Virus record (IMG/VR): IMGVR_UViG_3300045976_000096
Coordinates: 48,423 to 112,422 of that record
Origin: a virus
Reading direction: 5' to 3' (one strand)
Length of the DNA stretch: 64,000 bases
The position numbers were made by a program, and so were the translations under genes. Under the pieces are notes generated by a model. That model searched no databases. It saw nothing but the letters and a program-made list of their open reading frames with translations, and had not been told where the DNA came from. Below are positions 6,924-64,000 of the stretch, in pieces (the stretch's first letter is position 1; the number at the start of each line of letters is the position of its first letter).

Positions 6924-7009
6924 ATCCGCGCACGCTCCAGATATGGGCGTGCATAATACCACCATGACAACAACGTCATGACTGACTTACTTAACCACAT
7001 GGAGAAAAT

Positions 7010-9464: not shown

Positions 9465-10024
9465 CCTTCCTGATCAACGGCATCGATACCGAAACCACCG
9501 GCGTCGACCAGCCCAAAGGCGACCGCATCATCGAGGTCGCGATCCTGACCTTCGATTTCGCCACTCGCAAGATGGTGGACCGCTACGTGCAGCGGATTGA
9601 CCCCGAGCGTCCCATCGCCGCGGCCGCCCAGGCGGTACACGGCATTTCCTACAGCGACCTCGTCGGCCAGCCGAAATGGGAAGACGTGGCGCCCGAGGTT
9701 GGTCGCCGGCTGGACGCGGCGCCGCTGGCGATCGCGCACAACATGGATTTCGACGGCCCCTTCATCGCCGGCGAAATGGTGCGCGTGGGCCTGCCGCCGC
9801 CGAATCCGGTCGCCTTCTGCACCATGCGGAACGGGCGCTGGGCGACGTTCGACGGGAAAAGCCCGAAGCTGCAGGAATTGGCGTTCAGTCTTGGCGTCAA
9901 TTATGATCCGAAGCTCGCACACGCCGCCGAGTATGATGTTGCAATTATGATGGCGTGCTTCTTCCGCGCATACGATCGTGGCTTTTTCAAGCTGCCGGAA
10001 TCCCTTCTGGCGAAAGCAGCATGA
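9461..10024 (+). CDS. DEDDh 3'-5' exonuclease (DnaQ/epsilon-like)
   Basis: DTETTG, IIEVA, AHNMDFD, AHAAEYD motifs. Confidence 0.92.
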   Translation: MTFLINGIDTETTGVDQPKGDRIIEVAILTFDFATRKMVDRYVQRIDPERPIAAAAQAVHGISYSDLVGQPKWEDVAPEVGRRLDAAPLAIAHNMDFDGPFIAGEMVRVGLPPPNPVAFCTMRNGRWATFDGKSPKLQELAFSLGVNYDPKLAHAAEYDVAIMMACFFRAYDRGFFKLPESLLAKAA

Positions 10025-10779
10025 TCCCGGCGCAGCCTGGCATTTATGCCATCGTGAACCTGACCAACGGCCGGCACTATGTCGGCAGCGCCATCAACAT
10101 CAGAAAACGCAAGGCTGTCCACCTATGCGAGCTACGTAAGGGTAAGCACGATAACTCCAAACTGCAGCGCGCTTTCAACAAGTACGGCGAAGCCGAATTC
10201 AGGTTCGATGTGTTGGAGCTGGTAGCGGACACCACGCTGCTGATCGAGCGCGAGCAGTTCTGGATGGATTCAACCAGGCCCTTCTACAATATCCTGCGCG
10301 TCGCCGGCAGCTCGCTTGGTCGAAAGGCGACCGACGAAACCAAGGCGAAGATCGCGGCTAAAGCCCGTGGCAGGAAGTGCAATTTCACTGCCGAACATCG
10401 AGCGAACATCAGTAGGGCGACCAAGGGCAAGCGTCACGGACCACTGTCGGAAGCGCACCGGGCGCAGATCAGCGAGGTCCAAAAAGCCCGCTGGACCGAT
10501 GAAGAACGACAGCGGTATGGCGAGCGCGCAGCGACGCTATTTCTCGGCAAGGAGCACACCGAGGAGACCAAGCAGGCGCTGCGTGACGTCAAGGCGGTCT
10601 ACGACTACCTGATTACGGCGCCGGATGGCACCGAGCACCGGACCAACAGCATGACGAAGTTCTGCGCCGACCATCCCGAACTGCATGCCTGCGCCATGAT
10701 GCGGGTCGCGCACGGCAAGCAGAAGGCGCACAAGGGATGGACGGTCATAGCCACGCACAAGCCTGGCACCGTCGCGTAA
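10021..10779 (+). CDS. GIY-YIG homing endonuclease with NUMOD3-like repeats
   Basis: GIYAIVN...YVGSA...R...H, EREQFW, YN; start ATG 10021 overlapping exonuclease stop. Confidence 0.9.
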   Translation: MIPAQPGIYAIVNLTNGRHYVGSAINIRKRKAVHLCELRKGKHDNSKLQRAFNKYGEAEFRFDVLELVADTTLLIEREQFWMDSTRPFYNILRVAGSSLGRKATDETKAKIAAKARGRKCNFTAEHRANISRATKGKRHGPLSEAHRAQISEVQKARWTDEERQRYGERAATLFLGKEHTEETKQALRDVKAVYDYLITAPDGTEHRTNSMTKFCADHPELHACAMMRVAHGKQKAHKGWTVIATHKPGTVA

Positions 10780-25162: not shown

Positions 25163-25178
25163 TGTTTCACGTGAAACA
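25163..25178. other. parS: parS site (chromosomal ParB/Spo0J consensus)
   Basis: Perfect TGTTTCACGTGAAACA palindrome, intergenic. Confidence 0.88.
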
Positions 25179-25579
25179 TCGCTATAAGGATCGATCCTCG
25201 GCCCGCCTTGGCCCTATAAGAACGCGGCTTTCATCCTATAAGGACACTCTTATACTTTGACCCGAAATCCTATAAGGATGGGGTTGCGCCTAGGCGAAAA
25301 CGACTCTTATACATTATATCGCGACAGCAAACGGCAGCTGCGGCGACGGGTAATCCGAAGTTTCGCGCGGGCGCGCGGAAGGGCCAAGGATCGCCTAGGA
25401 ACCCACCCGGCCACGGCGTGCCGAGGCTTTCCTAGGCCCAGGGAGCGGACGATGCCTGCGGTGCGCCAAGGATTTCCTAGGCCCTCGCCTGGTCGGTGAG
25501 ACGGGCGTGAACGAGCCACCCACGCGCCGCACCTGCGCGGTCATACTACGTTCTCACCAACCACACATGAAAGCACAGC

Positions 25580-26801: not shown

Positions 26802-27068
26802 CAAGCCACAGGCGCCCACCAGGCGCCTTTTGTATTGACCGGGCCACGCCAAGGCTTTCCTAGGCCGTTACGAGGCCGTACGCCGGCCACCAGGCGCAAG
26901 CCAGGCCACCAGGCTTGCCGAGGCCACAGCCAGGCCATAGGCCGTGCGGCGGGCGCGGGATGGACACGGGTATGGATGATGTGACCGGGCCAGCCACCCG
27001 CCGCAGCTGCGTCGTCATACTGTGGTCTCTGCTGCGATGTGCAGCGCAACCCACCCTAGAAAGAGACC

Positions 27069-27263: not shown

Positions 27264-27436
27264 ACGGCTACAGCCTCACCGACTTCGACCCGACCCCGCG
27301 CCTGTTCTACTCGCAGCGCGCCAGGGTATGCCACGGTTACACGTTCTGCCAAGGTCCGTTCGTGACAGACGACTTCGGCAACAGCGTGCGGGTCAGCAAC
27401 GACAGCCTGACGCACTACCTGCGCCAGAGCCATTAA
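27260..27436 (+). CDS. hypothetical protein
   Basis: ATGA overlap; terminator at about 27457-27481. Confidence 0.55.
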   Translation: MNGYSLTDFDPTPRLFYSQRARVCHGYTFCQGPFVTDDFGNSVRVSNDSLTHYLRQSH

Positions 27437-27673
27437 GCCAGCCGCATAGCCACATCAAGGGCGCCGACCGGGCGCCCTTTATATTGCGCCACCCAGTTGC
27501 CAAGGAAGCGCCTGTCACTGCGCTGCAGGAACACCATGCGAGCACGCCTTGGCAACGCCAGCCGCGGCGAAGGTATTCCGTGGACGTTCCGCTTTCAACG
27601 CCAGCTGCGGCGACGTCATATGCAGGATTTGTCGCGCCGCCCTCGCGCCTTGGCATGCCGGTCGCGACAGAGG

Positions 27674-27883
27674 ATGATTCACATGCGAACCATTCACATG
27701 CTAATAGTTCGTAACCTAACCATTTGCGTGCTAATGATTCGCATACACATAGTTCGCATACGAACCATTCACATGCTAATGATTCGTATGCTAATCGTTC
27801 ACATGCTAATCGTTCGCGTGCTAATGATTCGTATGCTAATCGTTCGCATGTGAACAGTTGACGTATCAACAGTTGAATACGCA
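27674..27883. repeat. 15-bp tandem array (12 clear + 2 degenerate units)
   Basis: Units such as atgattcgtatgcta, atcgttcacatgcta, accattcacatgcta at exact 15-bp period. Confidence 0.92.
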
Positions 27884-28231
27884 AGTAACCCGAATCGGGT
27901 TTAGCTCACCTGTGACTGACCTTGTCAATAGGTCATTGACCAATGCACAAACAAATTTCTTGCGCAAGCTGTGCATTTGTACAGTAAAAACCACTCTTGT
28001 ATAAGACATGGTCAAACTGACAATTTTAACGCTTGTAAGTCATTGATTTTAAAGCGAACCCTCTAGGTTCAACGAACAGACAGGTCCCGGTATGGTTCTA
28101 TCAACAAAGGGAAAAACCTCACCACGGGCTTAAAAAGGGCATTTGCGGGCATATATTTTTGCGTGATGTTTTTGTGCGTCTACATGACATCAGAATCTAA
28201 TTTCACGCATAAAAAAAATCACGCAAAAGTA

Positions 28232-28260
28232 TTGACCTGGCAATTTTCGATCTGTATAGT
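28232..28260 (+). promoter_or_regulatory. strong sigma70-type promoter with A-rich UP element
   Basis: TTGACC-17bp-TATAGT, A8 tract upstream. Confidence 0.8.
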
Positions 28261-28410
28261 TCTATTCATGCACTGACGAACACAACGATTCGCAGCGCTG
28301 CGCAAGCAAGTGGTTACATAACCCGCGCGCCCGGTACTGTGGTTCGCTCTCGCAGATACTGACCGGGCAAACAAAATACTCTTTCACAACATTATATAAA
28401 GGTAACTATC

Positions 28411-29097
28411 ATGGGTAAGCAATTGAAAGCTGCAACTATCGTTAACAAACTGGGCGCAGCAGTCGCACAGCGCGTGCAAGCGCTGAAAGACAACGAGACG
28501 CACGTCGCGACCGAGTTTAAGGGCATCTTAGCGTGCTACGCGCCCGACGGTAACAATCGCGGTTCGTTCGAGCGTGCAATCGAAAGCGTGAAAGATCAGA
28601 TCGATTTTGACTTCTTAATCAAGATCATCGGTAAGCACGCAGAAACGGGCAAGAACGACCCGAACTATGTGCAAGCAAAAACGATTGTGAAAATCAATCG
28701 CTTGCTATTCGGTCTCGCAACGAAAGACATGCGCGCGCTCGACAACCATTCGCGCTCGTTGATCGTGAATGCAACGCTGAATGGTAAGCTCTCTAGCAAA
28801 GCAGCGTTCGCAACGCTGGTACGTGTTCAATGGGGGGAAGAGATCGAAGAAGCGCTGCGCGAGCGTAACAACTACAGCGCGGGTACGGGTTCGACGCAAC
28901 TCTCTAGCACAAAAGAAATGATGCGCGTTTTGGGATTAAGCGACAACCCGAAGGGCACGAAAAACGCAGACTTCGCTTTCACCGACGAAGCTCGTACGCT
29001 ACTGTGCGAACGGTTCGCGCGTCTCGCAGAACTGGTCAAGACCGCTGACAAGATCGATGCAGAGCTTGACGCAGCAATCGAAGAAGCAGCAGAGTAA
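28411..29097 (+). CDS. hypothetical protein, probable immediate-early gene (paralog of 15361 C-domain)
   Basis: AAAGGT RBS; NYSAGTGSTQLSS motif; atypical codon usage. Confidence 0.85.
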   Translation: MGKQLKAATIVNKLGAAVAQRVQALKDNETHVATEFKGILACYAPDGNNRGSFERAIESVKDQIDFDFLIKIIGKHAETGKNDPNYVQAKTIVKINRLLFGLATKDMRALDNHSRSLIVNATLNGKLSSKAAFATLVRVQWGEEIEEALRERNNYSAGTGSTQLSSTKEMMRVLGLSDNPKGTKNADFAFTDEARTLLCERFARLAELVKTADKIDAELDAAIEEAAE

Positions 29098-29100
29098 ATC

Positions 29101-29130
29101 ACAAGGGCGCACTACGGTGCGCCCTTGTTT
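29101..29130 (+). terminator. hairpin/terminator overlapping parS
   Basis: acaagggcgcac-tacg-gtgcgcccttgt-tt. Confidence 0.75.
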
Positions 29131-29141
29131 CACGTGAAACA
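29126..29141. other. parS: parS site (second perfect copy)
   Basis: TGTTTCACGTGAAACA. Confidence 0.88.
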
Positions 29142-29156
29142 CACAAGGGAAACATC

Positions 29157-29330
29157 ATGCACAAGATCGAAGAATACGACGAGCAAAGCGACGAATTCAC
29201 GGTGCGCGCACCTGACGGGACGCGTTATTTCGCTAACGCAGAAACACTCGCGCATATGCTGAATCATTACGACGAACCGAGCGCGTTTCTTGGTATGCAG
29301 TTCACTACAACCATTAAGGTGCAAGCATGA
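29157..29330 (+). CDS. hypothetical protein (57 aa)
   Basis: AAGGGA RBS; MHKIEEYDEQ...IKVQA; below ORF-track cutoff. Confidence 0.65.
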   Translation: MHKIEEYDEQSDEFTVRAPDGTRYFANAETLAHMLNHYDEPSAFLGMQFTTTIKVQA

Positions 29331-29593
29331 AAAGCGAATATCTGAAACAGCAGCGCGCGACGCGCAACGACGAGATCACGCTGTGCGTCGTCGCGCTGCT
29401 GTGTGTCGTGCTGTGCATGGGCGTGCTGATTAACGCAGCAATTGAGAGTGAACAGCGCGCAGCGCAGCGCGCGAGCGACGCACGGTTAGCGCGTACGGGT
29501 TCGCGCTTATGCTTGCAAGACGGTCGCACGATTGACCAAATGCGGTTTGACGAACCCGTACGCGCGATGTCTGCGCGTTGGTGCAAACGTTAA
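29327..29593 (+). CDS. small membrane protein
   Basis: ITLCVVALLCVVLCMGVLI TM segment. Confidence 0.7.
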   Translation: MKSEYLKQQRATRNDEITLCVVALLCVVLCMGVLINAAIESEQRAAQRASDARLARTGSRLCLQDGRTIDQMRFDEPVRAMSARWCKR

Positions 29594-29603
29594 GGGGAAA
29601 GAC

Positions 29604-29831
29604 ATGACTGACTTAGAAAAAGCAATGCAAGAGTTCGCAGCGCGTAACGGTGTGACGCAATGCGCACCCGTCACGAGCGCGAAGCAAGCAAACGAGCTTG
29701 CGAAAGCGCGACGCGTCGAACAGCGCGAACGCGAACGTGCAGAACGCGCTGCGCGCTGCGCAGAACAGAACGCAGAGAACGCGCGCTATGATCGCGAAGG
29801 TGTGTGGTACGTGGGCGGGTTCGCATCGTAG
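29604..29831 (+). CDS. hypothetical protein
   Basis: AAGGGG RBS; hairpin at 29848-29875 downstream. Confidence 0.7.
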   Translation: MTDLEKAMQEFAARNGVTQCAPVTSAKQANELAKARRVEQRERERAERAARCAEQNAENARYDREGVWYVGGFAS

Positions 29832-30051
29832 CACATACGCAACAGTAGCACGCACCGCTTGACACGGTGCGTGCGATATGCGATGTCTTAGAAAAATTTT
29901 CAACCCGAGGAGGCCCTGCCTTCCTCGACTTCCGGTCTCCGAACACCCTTCCTTACAGAATCCTGGGCGGCCGCAAAAGCCAATCCTTATACATCCAAGA
30001 TCCAAACATCCACGATCCAGGATTCCACATTTCCCCACTTATCCCCGCAAT

Positions 30052-30456
30052 TCACCAGTTATCCACAATCCCCTTGGGCCGATCCTTCGACGCCAGGCGC
30101 GAGCCATCGAAACGCCCGGCCGGCGCTGCCGCGCCTCGCCGGGGTACGTCCTGCGCGCGTGGAATGATTGCCGCCTGAATGAACAGAGGCTGGACCTCCC
30201 ATTCTGCTTTCGACTCGAATGACCGGTTGCCGCTTGGGACCAGCGCCAGGTAATTTTCCCACGACAGGTCGCGATCCTTCTGCAGGGCCAGGCACTTGCC
30301 GACCAGCTCCTTGATGATGCGCTTTTGCTCTAACGGCCAGACGCCATCCCACCTATGGGCAGGCATGTCGCCGTTCTCCTGCTCGCCCAGCTGACGCCGA
30401 AGGTACAGGTAGTCCTCGTAGTTCGGGAAGGACAGGATTTTCGCCAGGTCTCTCAC
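30052..30456 (-). CDS. small protein, two Y..Y...W helical repeats, tail SKDRPKGIVDNW
   Basis: GTG start coupled to upstream stop. Confidence 0.7.
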   Translation of the reverse strand: MRDLAKILSFPNYEDYLYLRRQLGEQENGDMPAHRWDGVWPLEQKRIIKELVGKCLALQKDRDLSWENYLALVPSGNRSFESKAEWEVQPLFIQAAIIPRAQDVPRRGAAAPAGRFDGSRLASKDRPKGIVDNW

Positions 30457-30656
30457 CAGATCACCTCCACGACGGTTTGCGGCCTGTCCGAGCCGGCGGC
30501 GCCTTGCGTTCTCGGGGTGCGCCGCACTTCCTCGCGCAGCTCCTCCATCATGTCCATCCGTGCTTTCAGGGGCATGGCGCGCCAGACGGCCTCTGAAATC
30601 GGCTCGTACTTGAGCGCCAGCGACAGCTCCACGTAGCGCTGGTAGGTGTTCACCAT
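30453..30656 (-). CDS. small protein, tail SDRPQTVVEVIW
   Basis: MVNTYQRYVEL...; coupled. Confidence 0.75.
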   Translation of the reverse strand: MVNTYQRYVELSLALKYEPISEAVWRAMPLKARMDMMEELREEVRRTPRTQGAAGSDRPQTVVEVIW

Positions 30657-30871
30657 ACGACGTCCACCGGGGTTTGCGGTTGATCGCCCTTCGGTTGGGC
30701 GGTGGCGCGCGCACGGTCGCGCATGACGCGCTGCTGGTGCTGTAGAACGTTGATCGTGATCTTGCGCATGATGGGCTTCATGTCGGTCCAGGCGTTGGCA
30801 TCGATGCAGACTTCGTTGTCGAAGTGCCCGGCCAGCCAGGTGCGCATGTAGTCGTCGTAGGAGATGTTCAC
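30650..30871 (-). CDS. small protein, tail GDQPQTPVDVVW
   Basis: MNISYDDYMR...; coupled. Confidence 0.75.
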   Translation of the reverse strand: MNISYDDYMRTWLAGHFDNEVCIDANAWTDMKPIMRKITINVLQHQQRVMRDRARATAQPKGDQPQTPVDVVW

Positions 30872-32756: not shown

Positions 32757-34496
32757 CTACGCGGCCGTCATCAAGACGGGAAAGCCCAGCGCCGCCAGGT
32801 CCACATCGCGCCCGTGCTCGTGGATGAAGCGGTCGAACCCGGCAGTCTCCTTGATGATGCTCTGGCGCTGCTTGGCGTGCAGTTTCAGATGGTCGTTAAA
32901 GTCGTCGGCGAAGTCGGTCACGAAACACAGGTTCGGCCCCTTCTTTTTCGCCCGCAGGCCGCGCCCGATGCGCTGCCTGAGCGCCACCTCGGCCTTGCCG
33001 CCGCCGGCCAGGCAGACATGGCCCACGGCCGGCACGTCCACGCCCACGTCGAGGATCGTGGTGCCGATCAGGACGTCGATGTCGCCGGCGGCCAGGCGCG
33101 CAAGCGCGCGCTTCCGCTCGTCCTGGTCGTTCTCGCCGCGGATGAAGCACACGCGCAGGCCGGCCGCGCGCATGGCGGCTTCCAGCACGTCGCCATGCTT
33201 GGTCTGCTGGATCAGAACCATCGAGGTCAGGCCGTGGCGCGCGAACATGCTGCAGCGGTCCACGATGATGTCGTTGCGGTATTCGTTCTCGACGATGCCG
33301 ATCCGGTACGCGCTCTGCCAGCCGGTGCCGCGAAACAGCTTGGCCGGCTTGTGGCGCAGCTGGATGAAGGTGAAGTGCGGCTGCGCCAGGATGCCGCGGT
33401 CGATCAGCATTTCCTCGCTGATCTTGATGGCGATCGGGCCGGAGCACGCCATCAGGCGCATGTTCGATTCCTGGTCGCCCTTCATGAACGGCGTGCCGGT
33501 CAGCGCCAGGCGGTAATAGGCGTTCTTGCAGTGTTTCAGGATCTGGTAGTAGCTCTCGCCCGACGCCTCGTGCGCTTCTTCGAGAATCACGAGACCGAAA
33601 CGCTCCAGCAGGGCAATTACGCGCGCGCGCTCGCGCATATGTTCGTTCACCTTCACCGCGGCATCGGCGCGCAGGCTGGCCGCGATCTTCTTGCGCTCGA
33701 TTTCCTGGTTTTGCTCGAATTCCTTGAGCAGGCGACGCTTTTCCGCCGGCGGCGTGCGCAATAAACCGAGCTTCGTCTCGTATTCCTTGTAGTCCTTGAG
33801 TTCTTTCTTGACGCGCGCGTCCATCATTTTTTCGAGTTCGCCCTCGACGGTCTTCTCCTCGACGCGCGCGGCGAGCGTCTGCACCATGCCGACGCAGATT
33901 TTGCGCACCGCGCGCCCGCCGCCCGCCGTCTCGTGCCCGAACTGGCCGTCGCCCAGCACGGAGCAGGCGGTGCCCATTTCCTCGAACGCGTCCTTCATCT
34001 GGTACATCAGGATGCCGCGCGTGGTCAGGAACAGGGTCGGCAGGTTGATCGAAGCGTAGGCCATGCGCGCGATGCGGCTCTTGCCGCCGCCAGTGGCCAC
34101 GCGCGCGATGATCTGGCCGTGCTTGCGCAACTGCTTGACCACCTCCGGCTGGTAGTCGTAGCGCGGATCGTAGCCGAACGAGTCGATGTCGGGACGCTCC
34201 GGCCCCTGCGGCTCGGGCAGGGGGCGCTTGACGTGGCGCACCTGATAGCCTTGCGCGCGCAGCTTGGCCGAGACGTAATGCACGAAGCCGGCCGGGAAGG
34301 TGCCGGCGCGAAAGTCCAGGAACGAGCTGCGGCCATCCCAGTTGCCCTTCTTGAAGGACATGACGTGCTCGGCGCCGGCAACCGCGTACGAGAGAATCTC
34401 CTGGACCGCCAGCTTGACCACCCGGTCGGGGTCGTGCAACTTGGCGATGACGGCGTTACTGGCGATTGTGATTGTAAGGCTCATTGCGCTTGCCAT
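32757..34496 (-). CDS. superfamily 2 (DExH-type) helicase
   Basis: ATGGGKS, ILEEAH, LTGTP, GVDVP, QRIGRGLR motifs. Confidence 0.93.
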   Translation of the reverse strand: MASAMSLTITIASNAVIAKLHDPDRVVKLAVQEILSYAVAGAEHVMSFKKGNWDGRSSFLDFRAGTFPAGFVHYVSAKLRAQGYQVRHVKRPLPEPQGPERPDIDSFGYDPRYDYQPEVVKQLRKHGQIIARVATGGGKSRIARMAYASINLPTLFLTTRGILMYQMKDAFEEMGTACSVLGDGQFGHETAGGGRAVRKICVGMVQTLAARVEEKTVEGELEKMMDARVKKELKDYKEYETKLGLLRTPPAEKRRLLKEFEQNQEIERKKIAASLRADAAVKVNEHMRERARVIALLERFGLVILEEAHEASGESYYQILKHCKNAYYRLALTGTPFMKGDQESNMRLMACSGPIAIKISEEMLIDRGILAQPHFTFIQLRHKPAKLFRGTGWQSAYRIGIVENEYRNDIIVDRCSMFARHGLTSMVLIQQTKHGDVLEAAMRAAGLRVCFIRGENDQDERKRALARLAAGDIDVLIGTTILDVGVDVPAVGHVCLAGGGKAEVALRQRIGRGLRAKKKGPNLCFVTDFADDFNDHLKLHAKQRQSIIKETAGFDRFIHEHGRDVDLAALGFPVLMTAA

Positions 34497-36956: not shown

Positions 36957-37609
36957 CCACTTTTACCATCGACAAGCGCTTCCACACGACCGTGGAGCGC
37001 ACCGACCGCGTGCTGGAAATCGCCGAAGCGTTCGGCCTGGGCCTGGACGACAAGGAATTCGTCGTGTTCGACCAGCAGCCGATCGACATCGAGCAGGGTG
37101 ACGTCGTCTACGTGACGGGCCAGTCGGGCGCCGGCAAATCCACCGTGCTGCGCGAGCTGGCGGCCCAGATGCAGGCCGCCGGCCTGGCCGTGACCGACAT
37201 CGACGCCATCCCGCTGCTGGACAAGCCGCTGATCGACCAGATCGGCAAGACCACCCAGGAGGCGCTGAACTTCCTGTCGATCGCCGGCCTGAATGACGCC
37301 TACCTGTTCATCAGGAAGCCGGCCGAGCTGTCCGACGGCCAGCGCTACCGCTTCCGCCTGGCCAAGCTGATCGAGTCGGGCGCGCGCGTCTGGGTCGCCG
37401 ACGAGTTCCTGGCCGTGCTCGACCGCACCACCGCCAAGGTGATCGCGTTCAACCTGCAAAAGACCGCGAGAAAGACCGGCGCCACCCTGATCGTGGCCAC
37501 CACCCACACCGACATGGTCGACGACCTGGCGCCCAACCTTTACGTGGAGAAGCGTTACAGGGAAAAGATCCAGATCATTCGCGCGCCAGAGGGCATGAAG
37601 AATGTCTAA
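36953..37609 (+). CDS. soluble ABC-type ATPase
   Basis: GQSGAGKS, LSDGQRYR signature, VADEF, ATTH; no permease nearby. Confidence 0.9.
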   Translation: MTTFTIDKRFHTTVERTDRVLEIAEAFGLGLDDKEFVVFDQQPIDIEQGDVVYVTGQSGAGKSTVLRELAAQMQAAGLAVTDIDAIPLLDKPLIDQIGKTTQEALNFLSIAGLNDAYLFIRKPAELSDGQRYRFRLAKLIESGARVWVADEFLAVLDRTTAKVIAFNLQKTARKTGATLIVATTHTDMVDDLAPNLYVEKRYREKIQIIRAPEGMKNV

Positions 37610-38159
37610 GGCGGGCATCTACCGGATCAGCAACCGCGAGAACGGCAAGTTCTATGTCGGCAGCGCGGTCAACCTGGAAAAGCGGTTCTACCTGCACCGC
37701 AACCAGCTCGACCTCGGCAAGCACCGGAACAGCCACCTGCAGCGCGCCTGGGACAAGCACGGCGCCGACGCCTTCGACTTTACGGTCCTGCAGTACGTCG
37801 AGGACAAGACGCAGCTGGTGGCGATCGAGCAGAACTGGATCGACACCCTGCGCGCTACCGAGCTCGGCTACAACATCTGCAAGGTGGCTAACAGCCGCCT
37901 GGGTGTGAAGGCCAGCGACGAGACCAAGGCGCGCATGTCGGCGGCAATGGCCGGGAAGACGCACACCGAAGAGACCCGAAAGAAAATGTCGGCCGCCAAG
38001 GCCGGCGTACCGAAACCACCACGATCGGCTGAGCATCGCGAAAAGCTCGGCGCCGTCCACCGCGGCAAGATCGTGTCCGAAGAAACGCGCGCAAAGCTGC
38101 GCGCCGCGCGAGCTGCACGCGAAGCACGTCGCGCACCCGAAGGAATGAAGAATGCATAA
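37602..38159 (+). CDS. GIY-YIG homing endonuclease with NUMOD3 repeats
   Basis: GIYRISN...YVGSA; H.EETRKKMS repeats. Confidence 0.9.
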   Translation: MSKAGIYRISNRENGKFYVGSAVNLEKRFYLHRNQLDLGKHRNSHLQRAWDKHGADAFDFTVLQYVEDKTQLVAIEQNWIDTLRATELGYNICKVANSRLGVKASDETKARMSAAMAGKTHTEETRKKMSAAKAGVPKPPRSAEHREKLGAVHRGKIVSEETRAKLRAARAAREARRAPEGMKNA

Positions 38160-38992: not shown

Positions 38993-39970
38993 ATGACGAC
39001 CATCATCGACAACGCGGACGTGCGCATCGTGCGCCGCGCCATGCCTGCCAACCACACGCTGTCGCTTCTGGACCGCATCTACGTCGAGCGCGGCACCAAG
39101 GCGGACTGGGATCTGCTGCACGAGCTGCACTACAAGGCCGAGCGTCTCGGGATCGGCCCGAAAATCTACCGCTGCGTGCTCGATGGCCAGGTGATCGGCG
39201 TGGGTGTGATGACGGTGCCGAAAATGCTGCTTTCGGGCCGCAACGAGGCCATGCCGCACATGCGTCCCAACGTGGACGGGCGCGACACGCGCCTGATCAA
39301 CCGCACACGCGCGCTGTGGCTCAACGCGCACGCCTGCACCAACAGCCGCCTGGTGCTGGACACGATGTACCGCGGCGCCGGCATCGCGTACCGCATGCAG
39401 AACCTCATGATGCGCATGACCGGCTGCCGCTACGTCGAATTCCAGTCGTCGATGAGCAAATTCAACCCGTTCGCGGCGAAGGCCGGCATGCGCTTCACGA
39501 AACCCAAGCGCAGCTCCAACTACGAGAAGGGCCTGGCCTTTTTCCAGCGCTGGTTCGAGAGCGTGCCGATGGATTATGTCGGCATCAAGGCGGAAATCGA
39601 CGCCATGCCGCCGGCGGTACAGACAAAGTGCATCGCCGAGATGCGCAAGTTCTACTACACCTGCTCGTCGATGGAGAAATCCGGCGACAACCGCGCCAAT
39701 GGCACCACGCGCGTCGACGCGATGGCGGTCGGCTACCTCTTGAAAAGCCTGCAGCAGCTCGTGCTGGCCAGTCCGCTGTACGGGATTTTCGAGAACCCCG
39801 ATTTCTGCCACCCGCTGCCAGCGCGCCTGCCGCTGGTCGCGTTCGACAATCAATCCCTCGGGTCGCCACTCGATTTGGAAGCCGCCTACGTGCAAATGGG
39901 CCGCATTCCGGTCGTCGACGACCTGACCAACCCGGAAGACGAAGATGCACCTGACAGCCAAGCAGATTGA
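38993..39970 (+). CDS. GNAT-fold (Mom-like) acyltransferase, putative DNA modification enzyme
   Basis: LHELHYK, SRLVLDTMYRGAGIA acyl-CoA motif A, MSKFNPFAAKAGM. Confidence 0.7.
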   Translation: MTTIIDNADVRIVRRAMPANHTLSLLDRIYVERGTKADWDLLHELHYKAERLGIGPKIYRCVLDGQVIGVGVMTVPKMLLSGRNEAMPHMRPNVDGRDTRLINRTRALWLNAHACTNSRLVLDTMYRGAGIAYRMQNLMMRMTGCRYVEFQSSMSKFNPFAAKAGMRFTKPKRSSNYEKGLAFFQRWFESVPMDYVGIKAEIDAMPPAVQTKCIAEMRKFYYTCSSMEKSGDNRANGTTRVDAMAVGYLLKSLQQLVLASPLYGIFENPDFCHPLPARLPLVAFDNQSLGSPLDLEAAYVQMGRIPVVDDLTNPEDEDAPDSQAD

Positions 39971-42716: not shown

Positions 42717-44345
42717 ATGAGCACAGACCTGCAGATCACCAAGCCCGGCGCCACCGGCGTCATCGACCCGAAGGACGAAAGCAACTTCGCCGTGCCGGTG
42801 ATGACGGACGACCAGAAGCGCCTGCGCGCGCTGATCACCCGCCGCCATCCCGAGTATTCGGACAAGATGAAGCACTGGGAATTCCTGTGCGCCACCTACG
42901 AGGGTGGCCGCGACTGGTTCAAGGCTGGCAACATCTTCCGCTACATCAAGGAAGGCGACGGCGAGTATCGCGACCGCGTGGCGCGCTGCTACCGCTTCAA
43001 CCACTCGCGCGAGGTGGTCGACCTGCTCAACAAGTACCTGTTCAAGCAGAACATCACCCGCAGCACCGACGCCCCGGAAAGCGTCAAAGCATTCTGGGAC
43101 AAGTCCACCAAGAACGGGCTGGGGATTCGTGACTTCGTGCGCCAGGCGGGCAAGAAAGCGTCGGTATCGGGCCGGATCGGGGTCGTGATCGACAACAACG
43201 CGCAGGGTGACGTCGTCACCAAGGCGGACGAGAAGGAAGCTGGCGTGCGCACCTACGGCTACATCGTCAGTCCGACCCAACTGCTCGACTACGACTTCGA
43301 CGAAGACGGCGACCTGAACTGGATTCTCATCCAGGAAGTCGCGCGCGACGCCGCCGATCCGTTCACCTCCAGTGGCGCGCAGGTCGAGCGCTACCGCCTG
43401 TGGGACAAGCAGACCTGGCGCCTGTTCGAGGAGCGCCAGATCGGCCGCAGCGGCAAGACTCGCGTGGTCGAGATCGCCAACGGCGAGCATGGCCTGGGCG
43501 AAGTCCCGGTGATCCTGCACGACCACATCATCAGCGACGAGGACTACGCGCCGCAGGCCCTGATCGACGACATCGCCTACCTGGACCGCGCGGTCGCGAA
43601 CTACCTGTCCAACCTGGACGCGATCATCCAGGACCAGACCTTCTCGCAGCTGGCCATGCCGGCGCAGAACGTGCTGCCGGGCGAGGACAACTACAACAAG
43701 CTCTTGGAAATGGGCACCAAGCGCATCTTCCTGTACGACGGCGAAGGCGGCGCGCAGCCGTTCTACCTGTCGCCGGACCCGAAGCAGGCCCAGATGATCC
43801 TGGCGGTCATCAACAAGATCATCAACGAGATTTACCACACCGTCGGCCTGGCCGGCGAGCGCACCAAGCAGGACAACGCGCTCGGCATCGACAACAGCTC
43901 CGGTGTGGCCAAGGCGTATGACTTCGAGCGCGTCAACGCGCTGCTGCAAGCGAAAGCGGACAGCCTGGAAGTGCTCGAGAACCGGATCGTCCGGCTGGTC
44001 GCGCTGTGGAATGGCGAGGAGAACAAGGTCGACAAGCCCCTGGTTTCGTACCCGGACAACTTCGACACCCGCGGCCTCTACGACGAATTCGACATCGCGG
44101 CCCGCCTGATGCTGGTCGATGCGCCGAAGGAAGTGCGTCAGCACCAGATGGAAATGGTCATCGACAAGCTGTTCCCGCAGCTGGCCGAGGATCTGAAGAC
44201 CAAGATGCTCGACGCGCTCAAGGACTGGCCGGTAGACCCGGTCGAGCAGGCCGCCGCGATGGCACAAGCCACCGCCCCTGACCAGGCCGCGCTCCAGAAG
44301 GGCGCGGCCAAGCAGACGGCCGGCGAAACACTGAGCAACAACTAA
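42717..44345 (+). CDS. portal protein
   Basis: Position after terL, size, HPEY...YEGG, LGEVP, SGVAK motifs. Confidence 0.88.
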   Translation: MSTDLQITKPGATGVIDPKDESNFAVPVMTDDQKRLRALITRRHPEYSDKMKHWEFLCATYEGGRDWFKAGNIFRYIKEGDGEYRDRVARCYRFNHSREVVDLLNKYLFKQNITRSTDAPESVKAFWDKSTKNGLGIRDFVRQAGKKASVSGRIGVVIDNNAQGDVVTKADEKEAGVRTYGYIVSPTQLLDYDFDEDGDLNWILIQEVARDAADPFTSSGAQVERYRLWDKQTWRLFEERQIGRSGKTRVVEIANGEHGLGEVPVILHDHIISDEDYAPQALIDDIAYLDRAVANYLSNLDAIIQDQTFSQLAMPAQNVLPGEDNYNKLLEMGTKRIFLYDGEGGAQPFYLSPDPKQAQMILAVINKIINEIYHTVGLAGERTKQDNALGIDNSSGVAKAYDFERVNALLQAKADSLEVLENRIVRLVALWNGEENKVDKPLVSYPDNFDTRGLYDEFDIAARLMLVDAPKEVRQHQMEMVIDKLFPQLAEDLKTKMLDALKDWPVDPVEQAAAMAQATAPDQAALQKGAAKQTAGETLSNN

Positions 44346-62593: not shown

Positions 62594-64000
62594 TATCCGC
62601 CCCGTTCCGGCGCCGACCCTGAATAACCTGACGGCCACGCCGAGCTTGCGCGCCGTCGTCCTGCTGTGGGATATGCCCACCGACACGACCTATGCCGGCG
62701 CCGAAATCTGGTCCAACTCGACCAACAACGTCGCCACCGCGACCAAGATCGGCACCGTCACGACCAACACCTTCACGGACTCGTCGACCAGCGTCAGCCC
62801 GGTCGCGAACCGCTACTACTGGGTGCGCGCGATCAACGTCTACGGCCGCACCGATGGCGCCTGGTCGAACTCGGCCGTGGCCAAATCTCTGCTGGCGACC
62901 AACCTGGACATTGCCGCCGGCGCCGTGCAGGCGTCGAACCTGTCGGTGGCGGCAATCGATCCGGTGACGGGCCAGCTGGCATCGGGGGCCGTTTCCACGA
63001 CCAAGTTCGCCAGCGGCATCGAGCCAGTGTCGATCGTGTCGGCCTTGCCGGCGACCTCCGGCTATACGGGGCCGAAGGTGGTCATGCTCACGACCGACGG
63101 CAAGCTGTACCGTTACAGCGGCGGCGCGTGGGTGAATGCCACGGCCGCGGCCGACATTTCCGGCACGCTCACCAGCAGCCAGATCGCCTCGGTCGACAGC
63201 TCCAAGCTGGTTGGTGCCCTGACCAGCGCGCAGATCGCATCCATCGATGCGGCCAAGTTGGTCGGCAAGATCACCAGCGCCCAGATCAACACGTTGTCGG
63301 CGACGCAGCTGATTGGCGCACTGACCAGCGCCCAGATCAGTTCCCTGTCGGCGGGCCAGATTACGGGTCAGCTCACCAGCGCCCAGATCGCCTCCCTGCA
63401 GGCAAGCCAGATCACCGGCCAGATCACCAGCAACCAGATCGCCTCGCTGTCTGCCAGCCAGATTGCCGGCACACTGACGAGCGCCCAGATTGCATCGGTC
63501 GACGCCACCAAGTTGATCGGTCAGGTGACGTCAGCTCAGGTGGCGTCGCTCGCCGCCACGCAGATCACCGGCCAGCTGACGGCATCGCAGATCGCGTCGC
63601 TGCAAGCGAGCCAGATCACGGGCACGCTGACCAGCAACCAGATTTCCTCGCTCAATGCGAGCCAGATCGCGGGCGCCCTCACCAGCGCGCAGATCGCGTC
63701 GATGGACGTGACCAAGCTGGTCGGCCAGGTCACGAGCACGCAGATCACCGACAGCGCGATCACGACAGCCAAGCTCGGCGCCGGCGCGGTCACGGCTGCC
63801 AAGATCCTCGCCGGGACGATCACCGGCAACGAAATCGCGGGCACGACGATCACCGCCGCCAATATTCTGGGTCGAACCATCACCGCTGCACAGATCGCCG
63901 CAGGCACGGTAACCGCCAATGAGATTGCAGCGCGTACTATTGCCGCAAACAATATCATTGCTGGAGCTATCACGGGCAATGAGATTGCGGCCAATACCAT
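62583..64000 (+). CDS. tail fibre/adhesin-like protein (partial; FN3 domain + 17-aa repeats)
   Basis: MLLNIRPVPAP...RYYWVRAIN; repeats like GQLTSAQIASLQASQIT; open to window end. Confidence 0.8.
   Translation, partial: MLLNIRPVPAPTLNNLTATPSLRAVVLLWDMPTDTTYAGAEIWSNSTNNVATATKIGTVTTNTFTDSSTSVSPVANRYYWVRAINVYGRTDGAWSNSAVAKSLLATNLDIAAGAVQASNLSVAAIDPVTGQLASGAVSTTKFASGIEPVSIVSALPATSGYTGPKVVMLTTDGKLYRYSGGAWVNATAAADISGTLTSSQIASVDSSKLVGALTSAQIASIDAAKLVGKITSAQINTLSATQLIGALTSAQISSLSAGQITGQLTSAQIASLQASQITGQITSNQIASLSASQIAGTLTSAQIASVDATKLIGQVTSAQVASLAATQITGQLTASQIASLQASQITGTLTSNQISSLNASQIAGALTSAQIASMDVTKLVGQVTSTQITDSAITTAKLGAGAVTAAKILAGTITGNEIAGTTITAANILGRTITAAQIAAGTVTANEIAARTIAANNIIAGAITGNEIAANT

Follow-up and report, generated by a model that had tools for sequence, protein, structure and literature searches.

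Why should a word that is nearly missing from one stretch of a phage genome be packed densely at that stretch's very edge? The question is raised by a virus record of 112,422 bp and 62% G+C (IMG/VR IMGVR_UViG_3300045976_000096), of which the window, meaning the whole stretch of DNA analyzed here (64,000 nucleotides), is the final 64 kb. The large terminase is about 61% identical to its counterparts in Salmonella phage SSU5, Rhizobium phage RHEph10 and Pseudomonas phage nickie, and the phage belongs to the SSU5/nickie-like siphophages of about 100-120 kb, a group whose SSU5-type members include phage-plasmids. The word is HGGM/KCCD, and the features that frame the question are the following (window coordinates throughout, unless stated otherwise):

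27672..29882, + strand: motif-free early cassette (promoter region, winged-helix-like gene and three small ORFs), closed by the element described below
28411..29097, + strand: main cassette gene, 228 aa, here called DesA, with a winged-helix-like C-terminal half
29848..29874, + strand: 10-bp GC-rich hairpin without a U-tract after the last cassette ORF, read from the sequence
29908..30027, + strand: the flagged patch, with 18 HGGM/KCCD words (14 KCCD and 4 HGGM on the top strand)
30052..30714, - strand: last ORF of the convergent operon, with its stop at 30052

Between 27672 and 29907, a single HGGM/KCCD word is present where about 180 are expected (about 80 per kb elsewhere), and this is the sole word-poor stretch of the 112,422-bp genome. 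The related words NGGG, NGGT and GGGM occur within it at normal rates. The motif-free stretch is one transcription unit with an AT-rich promoter region, and it faces an operon that begins at a UvsW-like helicase (32757-34496) and runs in the opposite direction. The gap in which the two converge, from the stop of the last + strand ORF at 29831 to that of the - strand ORF at 30052, holds the patch, just as the original prediction had placed it.

Several other sequence features accompany the cassette. A strong sigma-70-like promoter (TTGACC-17-TATAGT, 28232-28260) serves the cassette gene, flanked by a 21-nt inverted repeat (28153-28173 and 28212-28232, 90% complementary) that looks like an operator pair. 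About 13 tandem near-palindromic 15-bp units (RTTCRYATGCTAATS) are present at the left edge of the desert (27677-27886). Palindromes of the form GCCWWGGM, each an inverted pair of the avoided word, are clustered immediately to the left of the desert (27480-27670), as they also are at the left desert flank of relatives L001, L002, L015, L028, L031 and L033. The genome has only two perfect palindromes of the chromosomal parS type (TGTTTCACGTGAAACA), one at 25163-25178 beside a second cluster of boxes (see below) and one at 29126-29141, immediately behind the main cassette gene; L024, L025 and L029 also have this palindrome after their cassette gene. Further away, two GIY-YIG/NUMOD3 homing-endonuclease genes are found (9955-10779 and 37602-38159), the second of which interrupts a ParB-ParB-ABC ATPase-thioredoxin cluster ahead of the terminase genes.

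The patch itself was first noticed as a run of about 18 words, mostly KCCD on the top strand, and a recount gives exactly 18, of which 14 are top-strand KCCD. The ATCCA run noted within it starts at 29993, 30000, 30008 and 30015, with ATTCCA at 30022. The words exceed what local composition predicts (18 observed against 5.6 in mononucleotide and 7.9 in dinucleotide shuffles, p<0.001) and their density exceeds the intergenic mean, the comparison by which the prediction was to be judged. Set against the genome, the excess is smaller: the whole window averages 9.6 words per 120 nt (sd 3.5) and a crude set of intergenic DNA likewise 9.6 (sd 3.7), such that 1.4% and 2.8% of 120-nt segments, respectively, reach 18 and the patch stands only about 2 SD over either background. 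Thus, the description of a passage from none to saturation is correct in that a near-empty desert adjoins a dense patch, and overstated in that 1.4-2.8% of segments are as dense. The densest stretch of the window in HGGM/KCCD words is 26802-27068 (26 words in 120 nt at 26842), about 800 nt to the left of the desert.

Strand asymmetry is a stronger signal than word density. The patch has 54% G+C, and the tract that overlaps it is, with 47 C and 14 G, the joint most C>G-skewed 120-nt segment of the 112,422-bp genome. Three features describe this composition:

29937..30056, + strand: C-rich, G-poor tract (C47, G14), on the RNA-like strand for the cassette
29993..30027, + strand: four ATCCA and one ATTCCA, a lineage-specific short repeat array with a spacing of 7-8 bp
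29958..29966 (left arm) and 30017-30025 (right arm), + strand: 9-bp inverted repeat GAATCCTGG that brackets box 2 (below) and the ATCCA repeats, as examined in this genome

The arms of the inverted repeat pair in the predicted RNA fold of this genome. The + strand fold has a minimum free energy of -32 kcal/mol (z -2.1 versus shuffled sequence) and consists of one local hairpin and one long-range pairing.

The patch is best understood through its relatives, for which 47 loci were fetched around homologs of the neighboring UvsW-like helicase. In most of these, 0.8-1.7 kb of motif-free DNA is located downstream of the helicase, at a distance of a few kb and with a G+C content that ranges from 38 to 62%, and the order of cassette, element and convergent helicase operon is kept. 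At the helicase-side edge of the motif-free stretch, the loci share a non-coding element which is composed of an anchor, a variable spacer of about 20 nt, a 23-nt block, a C-rich run and two CCTTAYA boxes. The parts of the element at this locus are:

29883..29892, + strand: anchor ATGTCTTAGA, family consensus CGAAGTCYTAGA, (C)GAAGTCYTAGA, at the exact end of the motif-free stretch
29912..29934, + strand: 23-nt block, GGCCCTGCCTTCCTCGACTTCCG at this locus and GGCCCTGCCTTCCTCRACTTCCG among the shared element parts
29950..29957, + strand: box 1, TCCTTACA, at +67 from the anchor
29984..29992, + strand: box 2, TCCTTATAC, at +101 from the anchor

The anchor occurs once per locus, at the desert edge and in constant orientation, and its AGTC and TAG are invariant in an alignment of 19 lineages. 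The homologous motif-free cassettes of relatives terminate at it. The 23-nt block is near-identical in L001, L028, L033, L006 and L044 and recognizable in most lineages, and in most lineages examined the first CCTTAYA box is at +66 to +70 from the anchor and the second at +98 to +109. About half of the lineages have short repeats of their own after box 2, also spaced by 7-8 bp (e.g., TGGAA x5, TTGCCCAA x3 and TTGGGA x3). The C>G skew follows the anchor in about 20 lineages, where it is among the strongest of each locus even if the sequence has diverged (z 3-5 in L005, L008, L036, L038 and nickie). A scan of IMG/VR with the composite pattern of anchor and boxes finds 51 contigs, many of about 100-112 kb, with one copy each. 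Among isolates, nickie has the anchor at 105063 with boxes at matching offsets, and B1VFA has it at 43246 with a C>G patch and boxes of a different sequence; in both, the anchor is the end of a stretch without any CC or GG. SSU5 itself has neither the anchor nor an HGGM desert within 86-103 kb. The patch forms the C-rich core of a boundary element of about 150-190 bp that is non-coding, conserved and present in single copy. The presence of this element at the same desert edge in relatives supports the earlier claim of a boundary under positive selection, and the relatives that have the desert also have the cluster.

Whether the element acts as a structured RNA was also considered. Hairpins comparable to the one at 29848..29874 are found upstream of or around the anchor in relatives. 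Single-sequence folds place the anchor in a hairpin loop, on a stem of varying sequence, in about 10 of 19 lineages (L001, L002, L015, L024, L025, L027, L028, L029, L031 and L033), and this arrangement is absent from the present genome, nickie, L005 and L008. A comparison with Rfam 15 yields no hit in the window that reaches the gathering score and none of relevance in 27400-30400 at E<=5, and RNAalifold finds no consensus structure for the element. The structured-RNA reading is rejected on these two results. No tRNA is found within the window, and a reading of the junction as a tRNA or attachment site is rejected as well.

The cassette that the element closes is less constant. Homologs of DesA (190-266 aa) lie upstream of the anchor in many relatives, sometimes together with the small ORFs; across the contigs that carry the element, the cassette gene family varies. 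The AlphaFold model of DesA has a pLDDT of 85.6, and its C-terminal half resembles a winged-helix DNA-binding fold, with matches of middling quality (Z 6-7.9); a Foldseek search of the protein against the PDB gives no convincing match. The DesA family is absent from lineages that allow TCC. No similarity of the cassette to deposited phages is found at the DNA or protein level, and a scan for close relatives by peptide words returned nothing.

The avoided word differs between lineages. It is KCC, BCC, VCC, SCC, all CC or none, as judged upstream of the anchor at loci that include L059, L099, L102, L050 (nickie), L106 (B1VFA), L036, L038, L065 and L064/L082/L091. GCC and TCC are absent in this genome and some other lineages, and CCC, GCC and TCC in others. 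L059 has no ACC, CCC or GCC and keeps TCC, L099 is similar with CCC merely reduced, and L102 lacks CCC and GCC only. Every CC is absent in nickie, B1VFA (over a CC-free stretch of 851 nt), L036, L038, L065 and others, and some lineages have no depletion at all. Wherever a motif-free stretch exists, the anchor is its end; in L059, the stretch runs from -1275 to +14. The element is also found in lineages without any desert.

The composition of the element follows that of the cassette. TCC is present in the element at 2.4 times the density of the locus where the cassette avoids TCC and at 0.94 times where it does not (Mann-Whitney p=0.0003, kinship ignored), and ACC has the same trend (p=0.03, kinship ignored). 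Where a locus has a mixed set, enrichment in the element is higher for avoided than for allowed words in 13 of 16 cases (Wilcoxon p=0.001, kinship ignored). By contrast, the enrichment of CCC and GCC in the element is independent of what the lineage avoids. The boxes themselves contain TCC in lineages that avoid GCC and TCC, CCC in L059 and L102, and two copies of ACC in L099; where the avoided set is partial, each box has a first base that makes one of the words avoided by that lineage. Thus, the element, boxes included, is likely built from the avoided word of each lineage, with statistics that are uncorrected for phylogeny and a key contrast that is carried by few lineages (L059, L099 and L102).

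The preferred reading, to which a probability of about 40% is assigned, is that the element stops transcription that leaves the cassette, and insulates the cassette, via a factor that reads the word. The RNA of the cassette would enter the tract with the joint highest C>G skew of the genome, a composition typical of Rho-loading (rut) sites, and the packing of this tract, on one strand, with the CC-word purged from the cassette would allow a word-reading factor to bind or act there and make the stop. Candidates for such a reader are a modifying enzyme and a DNA-binding protein, the latter perhaps the winged-helix protein that the cassette encodes, and the element would shield the cassette from the convergent helicase operon. 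The element, its conservation, the skew and the correspondence of avoided with enriched words are observed in the sequences; termination, or a roadblock, and the identity of the reader are what we infer. A role in transcription is proposed because the cassette has the element at its 3' end, where two operons converge and no intrinsic terminator is present, and because the C-rich strand is that of the transcript; a word reader is proposed to act at the element because the word changes between lineages in the cassette and the element together.

The evidence in favor of a word-dependent stop and insulator includes the location of the element, which in every lineage follows the cassette immediately on its 3' side and occupies a convergent junction with no canonical intrinsic terminator, and the joint-extreme C>G skew on the RNA-like strand, which is conserved beyond the sequence itself. 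The word excess over composition, the fixed blocks and box spacing found once per contig in the 51 IMG/VR contigs, the enrichment of the element for the word that its own lineage avoids, and the winged-helix-like cassette protein whose family is missing where TCC is allowed all point the same way. Several points count against it. A rut site can do without a 10-nt anchor, block conservation or constant distances between boxes, the + strand RNA has some structure, lineages that lack a desert retain the element, and the covariation figures ignore kinship and lean on L059, L099 and L102.

Part of this evidence would also fit a simpler account, in which the tract is a plain Rho-dependent terminator beside unrelated conserved sites and the word density is a by-product of C-richness and shared ancestry. 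The tract follows a gene, and on the transcript it is rich in C and poor in G for no less than the roughly 80 nt expected of a rut site; the extreme and conserved skew on the RNA-like strand, the lack of an intrinsic terminator, the independence of CCC and GCC enrichment from avoidance, and the persistence of the element without a desert are all consistent with this account. It is nonetheless considered rather unlikely, as the words exceed even the dinucleotide-shuffle expectation, the avoided set of a lineage is mirrored in the TCC and ACC content of its element and in the base with which its boxes begin, and a rut site would not call for the conserved blocks and spacing.

A further difficulty for the preferred stop-and-insulator reading comes from a second set of boxes to the left of the cassette:

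25183..25278, - strand: second box cluster (TCCTTATAG x3 and TTCTTATAG), inverted, 4.7 kb to the left, beside a parS-like palindrome

The CCTTAYA boxes of this genome are found at these two loci only. The left cluster duplicates the boxes alone, with the rest of the element absent, and it has no outgoing transcription unit to terminate. Because the left cluster has nothing to terminate, the boxes alone are better explained as insulators, outward promoters or boundaries of terminal repeats. Several relatives also have inverted box clusters, located 2.6-4.9 kb to the left of their anchors, and an analogous pair is present in B1VFA. The interval between the two clusters is occupied by ORFans, several of which have promoter-like sites of their own. 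A recurrent site of this kind consists of GCCACNCACNCGCC, about 13 nt and then CATAAT or CATACT, and precedes small + strand genes; it is located at 25515, 25964, 26509 and 26989, and also at 6925, 13294 and 21079, and is distinct from the CCTTAYA boxes.

The paired, inverted clusters also count in favor of a T5-like alternative. Here the element would be a terminase site, a repeat-boundary site or an injection stop signal, placed at the inner end of either a long direct terminal repeat or the DNA that enters first, and the motif-free cassette would be the part present in the cell when a word-specific phage activity acts on all remaining DNA. Long terminal repeats are known from two relatives, of which Nican01 is listed as 'DTR (long)' (PMC11256456) and B1VFA has fixed termini with a 3,605-bp repeat (PMC12509600). 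In T5, the stop-signal repeat is a conserved non-coding sequence that recurs in inverted form 1.9-4.3 kb to its left, with variable genes in the interval, and the first-entering DNA is proposed to be without sites for the pre-early A1 nuclease, with EcoRI sites tolerated only outside it (10.1101/866236). The inverted cluster at 2.6-4.9 kb fits the size of the repeat and resembles the inverted copy of T5; B1VFA combines a long repeat with the anchor, the 851-nt CC-free stretch and a C>G patch; and the bracketed ORFans with their own promoters and the short 7-8-bp repeat arrays are in keeping with such a region.

Contig ends have a similar bearing. Among metagenomic relatives, 3 of 45 have a contig end no more than 100 bp from the anchor, where 0.38 would be expected (P=0.007), and of the ends within 5 kb, 20 are to the left and 8 to the right of it, both as a repeat boundary would predict; a strain-variable cassette would equally give contig breaks at the anchor. 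The contigs that end within about 60 nt of the anchor are L006, L058 and L019, at -59, -35 and about +30. The ends of the present contig (genome 1-660 and 111779-112422, the latter equal to window 63357-64000) are 80% identical over about 645 nt of a tail-fiber repeat, and the final ~130 nt are identical to genome 530-660. They are rejected as physical ends, being two 80%-identical versions of the tail-fiber repeat, and it looks as if two fiber variants broke a circular assembly.

Other observations count against a T5-like arrangement. The cassette is transcribed towards the element and not away from a leading end, the paired DnaA boxes of T5 have no conserved equivalent (a strict box in 1 of 39 lineages), and a repeat boundary or injection signal by itself leaves the avoided-word make-up of the element unexplained. 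The records of Nican01 and B1VFA carry no annotated terminal-repeat coordinates. The analogy is circumstantial, drawn from the long terminal repeats of two relatives, the inverted second box cluster and the contig ends at the anchor, and the T5-like alternative is regarded as a serious competitor, of lower probability than the word-dependent stop. A more elaborate version, which is doubtful, would unite delivery and word. The patch would be the stop signal of a two-step T5-like delivery, and a phage-encoded reader of the 3-4-nt CC-word (a nuclease, silencer or modifier) would act on all other DNA in the cell and spare the word-free first-entering cassette; the specificity of this reader would have switched several times (KCC, BCC, VCC, SCC and all CC), with the cassette purged and the stop element rebuilt each time.

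The boxes may instead be outward promoters, with CCTTAYA as a -10-like TATACT from which rightward transcripts would run antisense to the helicase operon or express downstream accessory genes; a related proposal is a CsrA/RsmA-type sponge RNA from the - strand. Box 2 is often TATACT or TATAGT, both clusters face outward from the bracket, and a + strand gene begins shortly after the boxes in nickie, L025, L029 and L008; no such ORF follows them in this genome. A 251-aa protein (genome 25806-26561, outside the window) matches Sigma-70 region 2 weakly (E 0.0016, which falls short of the curated cut-off); it is a possible phage sigma-like factor and would suit such promoters. No match to a T7-type RNA polymerase is found here, but control genomes gave none either. 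A sigma-70 consensus scan of 29880-30060 detects no -35/-10 pair at 16-18 bp, and the boxes are merely -10-like TATAC(T) without a -35 element; their confinement to two loci also argues against a general promoter class. For the sponge RNA, 11-12 GGA motifs were counted by eye on the - strand of the patch. The predicted fold of this strand is no more stable than that of shuffled sequence (z -0.04), searches for a promoter, a terminator or an Rfam family of a discrete small RNA found none on it, and the lack of an Rfam match or consensus RNA structure for the element further weighs against a small RNA. Promoters and sponge RNA are together judged improbable.

Least credible of all is a plasmid- or lytic-type replication origin, which is suggested by one further feature:

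30059..30067, + strand: perfect DnaA box TTATCCACA, within the coding 3' end of the - strand ORF and attributed to chance

A variant, TTATCCCCG, lies 19 nt upstream of this box, repeat arrays are nearby and SSU5-type relatives are phage-plasmids, all of which would suit an origin. The box is the sole perfect one of the genome, where about 0.9 are expected, and 1 of 39 lineages has a strict box, where 0.62 are expected; the DnaA/oriC reading is rejected as these counts are at chance level. Moreover, the single box is inside a coding 3' end, the patch has no AT-rich unwinding element, and the array of 15-bp units is 2 kb away at the other desert edge.

The original prediction also described the patch as heavily marked, and in this respect it finds no backing: no modification enzyme is tied to the word. 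Modification by 7-deazaguanine is rejected, as TGT/DpdA and QueC are absent from the genome. A GNAT-like 325-aa protein (38993-39970) was considered as the writer of a mark and rejected, since it is encoded in 10 of 10 relatives with and without the desert and its presence does not explain the desert; a difference in its specificity is a possible cause.

If the coupling of element and word holds, the first-acting DNA of these phages would be kept free of sites used by the phage's own early machinery, an arrangement that for T5 has been no more than a proposal, and a dedicated cis element would mark where the protected stretch ends. Lineages in which the word has changed and the architecture has remained constant would provide natural specificity swaps for finding the reader and for testing how the boundary is recognized, and isolates of the family exist (nickie, Nican01 and B1VFA). 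The anchor and boxes are also a landmark for the early cassette in uncultured contigs of a widespread group that includes relatives of the SSU5 phage-plasmids. A limited literature search did not find the element or its coupling to a lineage-variable avoided word.

Among known systems, the frequent-cutter systems of chlorella viruses, such as the CviPII CCD nickase and methylase, are similar in that a viral activity on a 3-nt CC-word would explain a genome-wide word that is absent from one stretch; they are unlike the present case in that no such nuclease or methyltransferase is found in the parts of the window examined here. T7 reportedly has runs of ~7-bp imperfect repeats beside its terminal repeats (SRL/SRR, said to have been described by Dunn and Studier in 1983), and the arrays of the present family are similarly imperfect ~7-bp repeats near a genome landmark, ahead of or after early promoters; they differ in being found in only about half of the lineages, with varying sequence and strand. 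The injection stop signal of T5 (repeat region 3 of the left terminal repeat) shares with the element its conserved non-coding short and inverted repeats beside a variable early coding segment, and a second inverted copy a few kb to the left, which consists here of the boxes only. There is no sequence similarity between the two, the paired DnaA boxes of T5 are absent here, and the avoided word is instead a 3-4-nt CC-word that changes between lineages. Rho-dependent terminators (e.g., lambda tR1, at the end of the immediate-early unit) likewise have a C-rich, G-poor tract of ~100 nt after an early unit without an intrinsic terminator. By contrast with these, the blocks, anchor and box spacing of the present element are conserved across phages whose helicases are ~45-80% identical, and its word content covaries with the motif avoided upstream.
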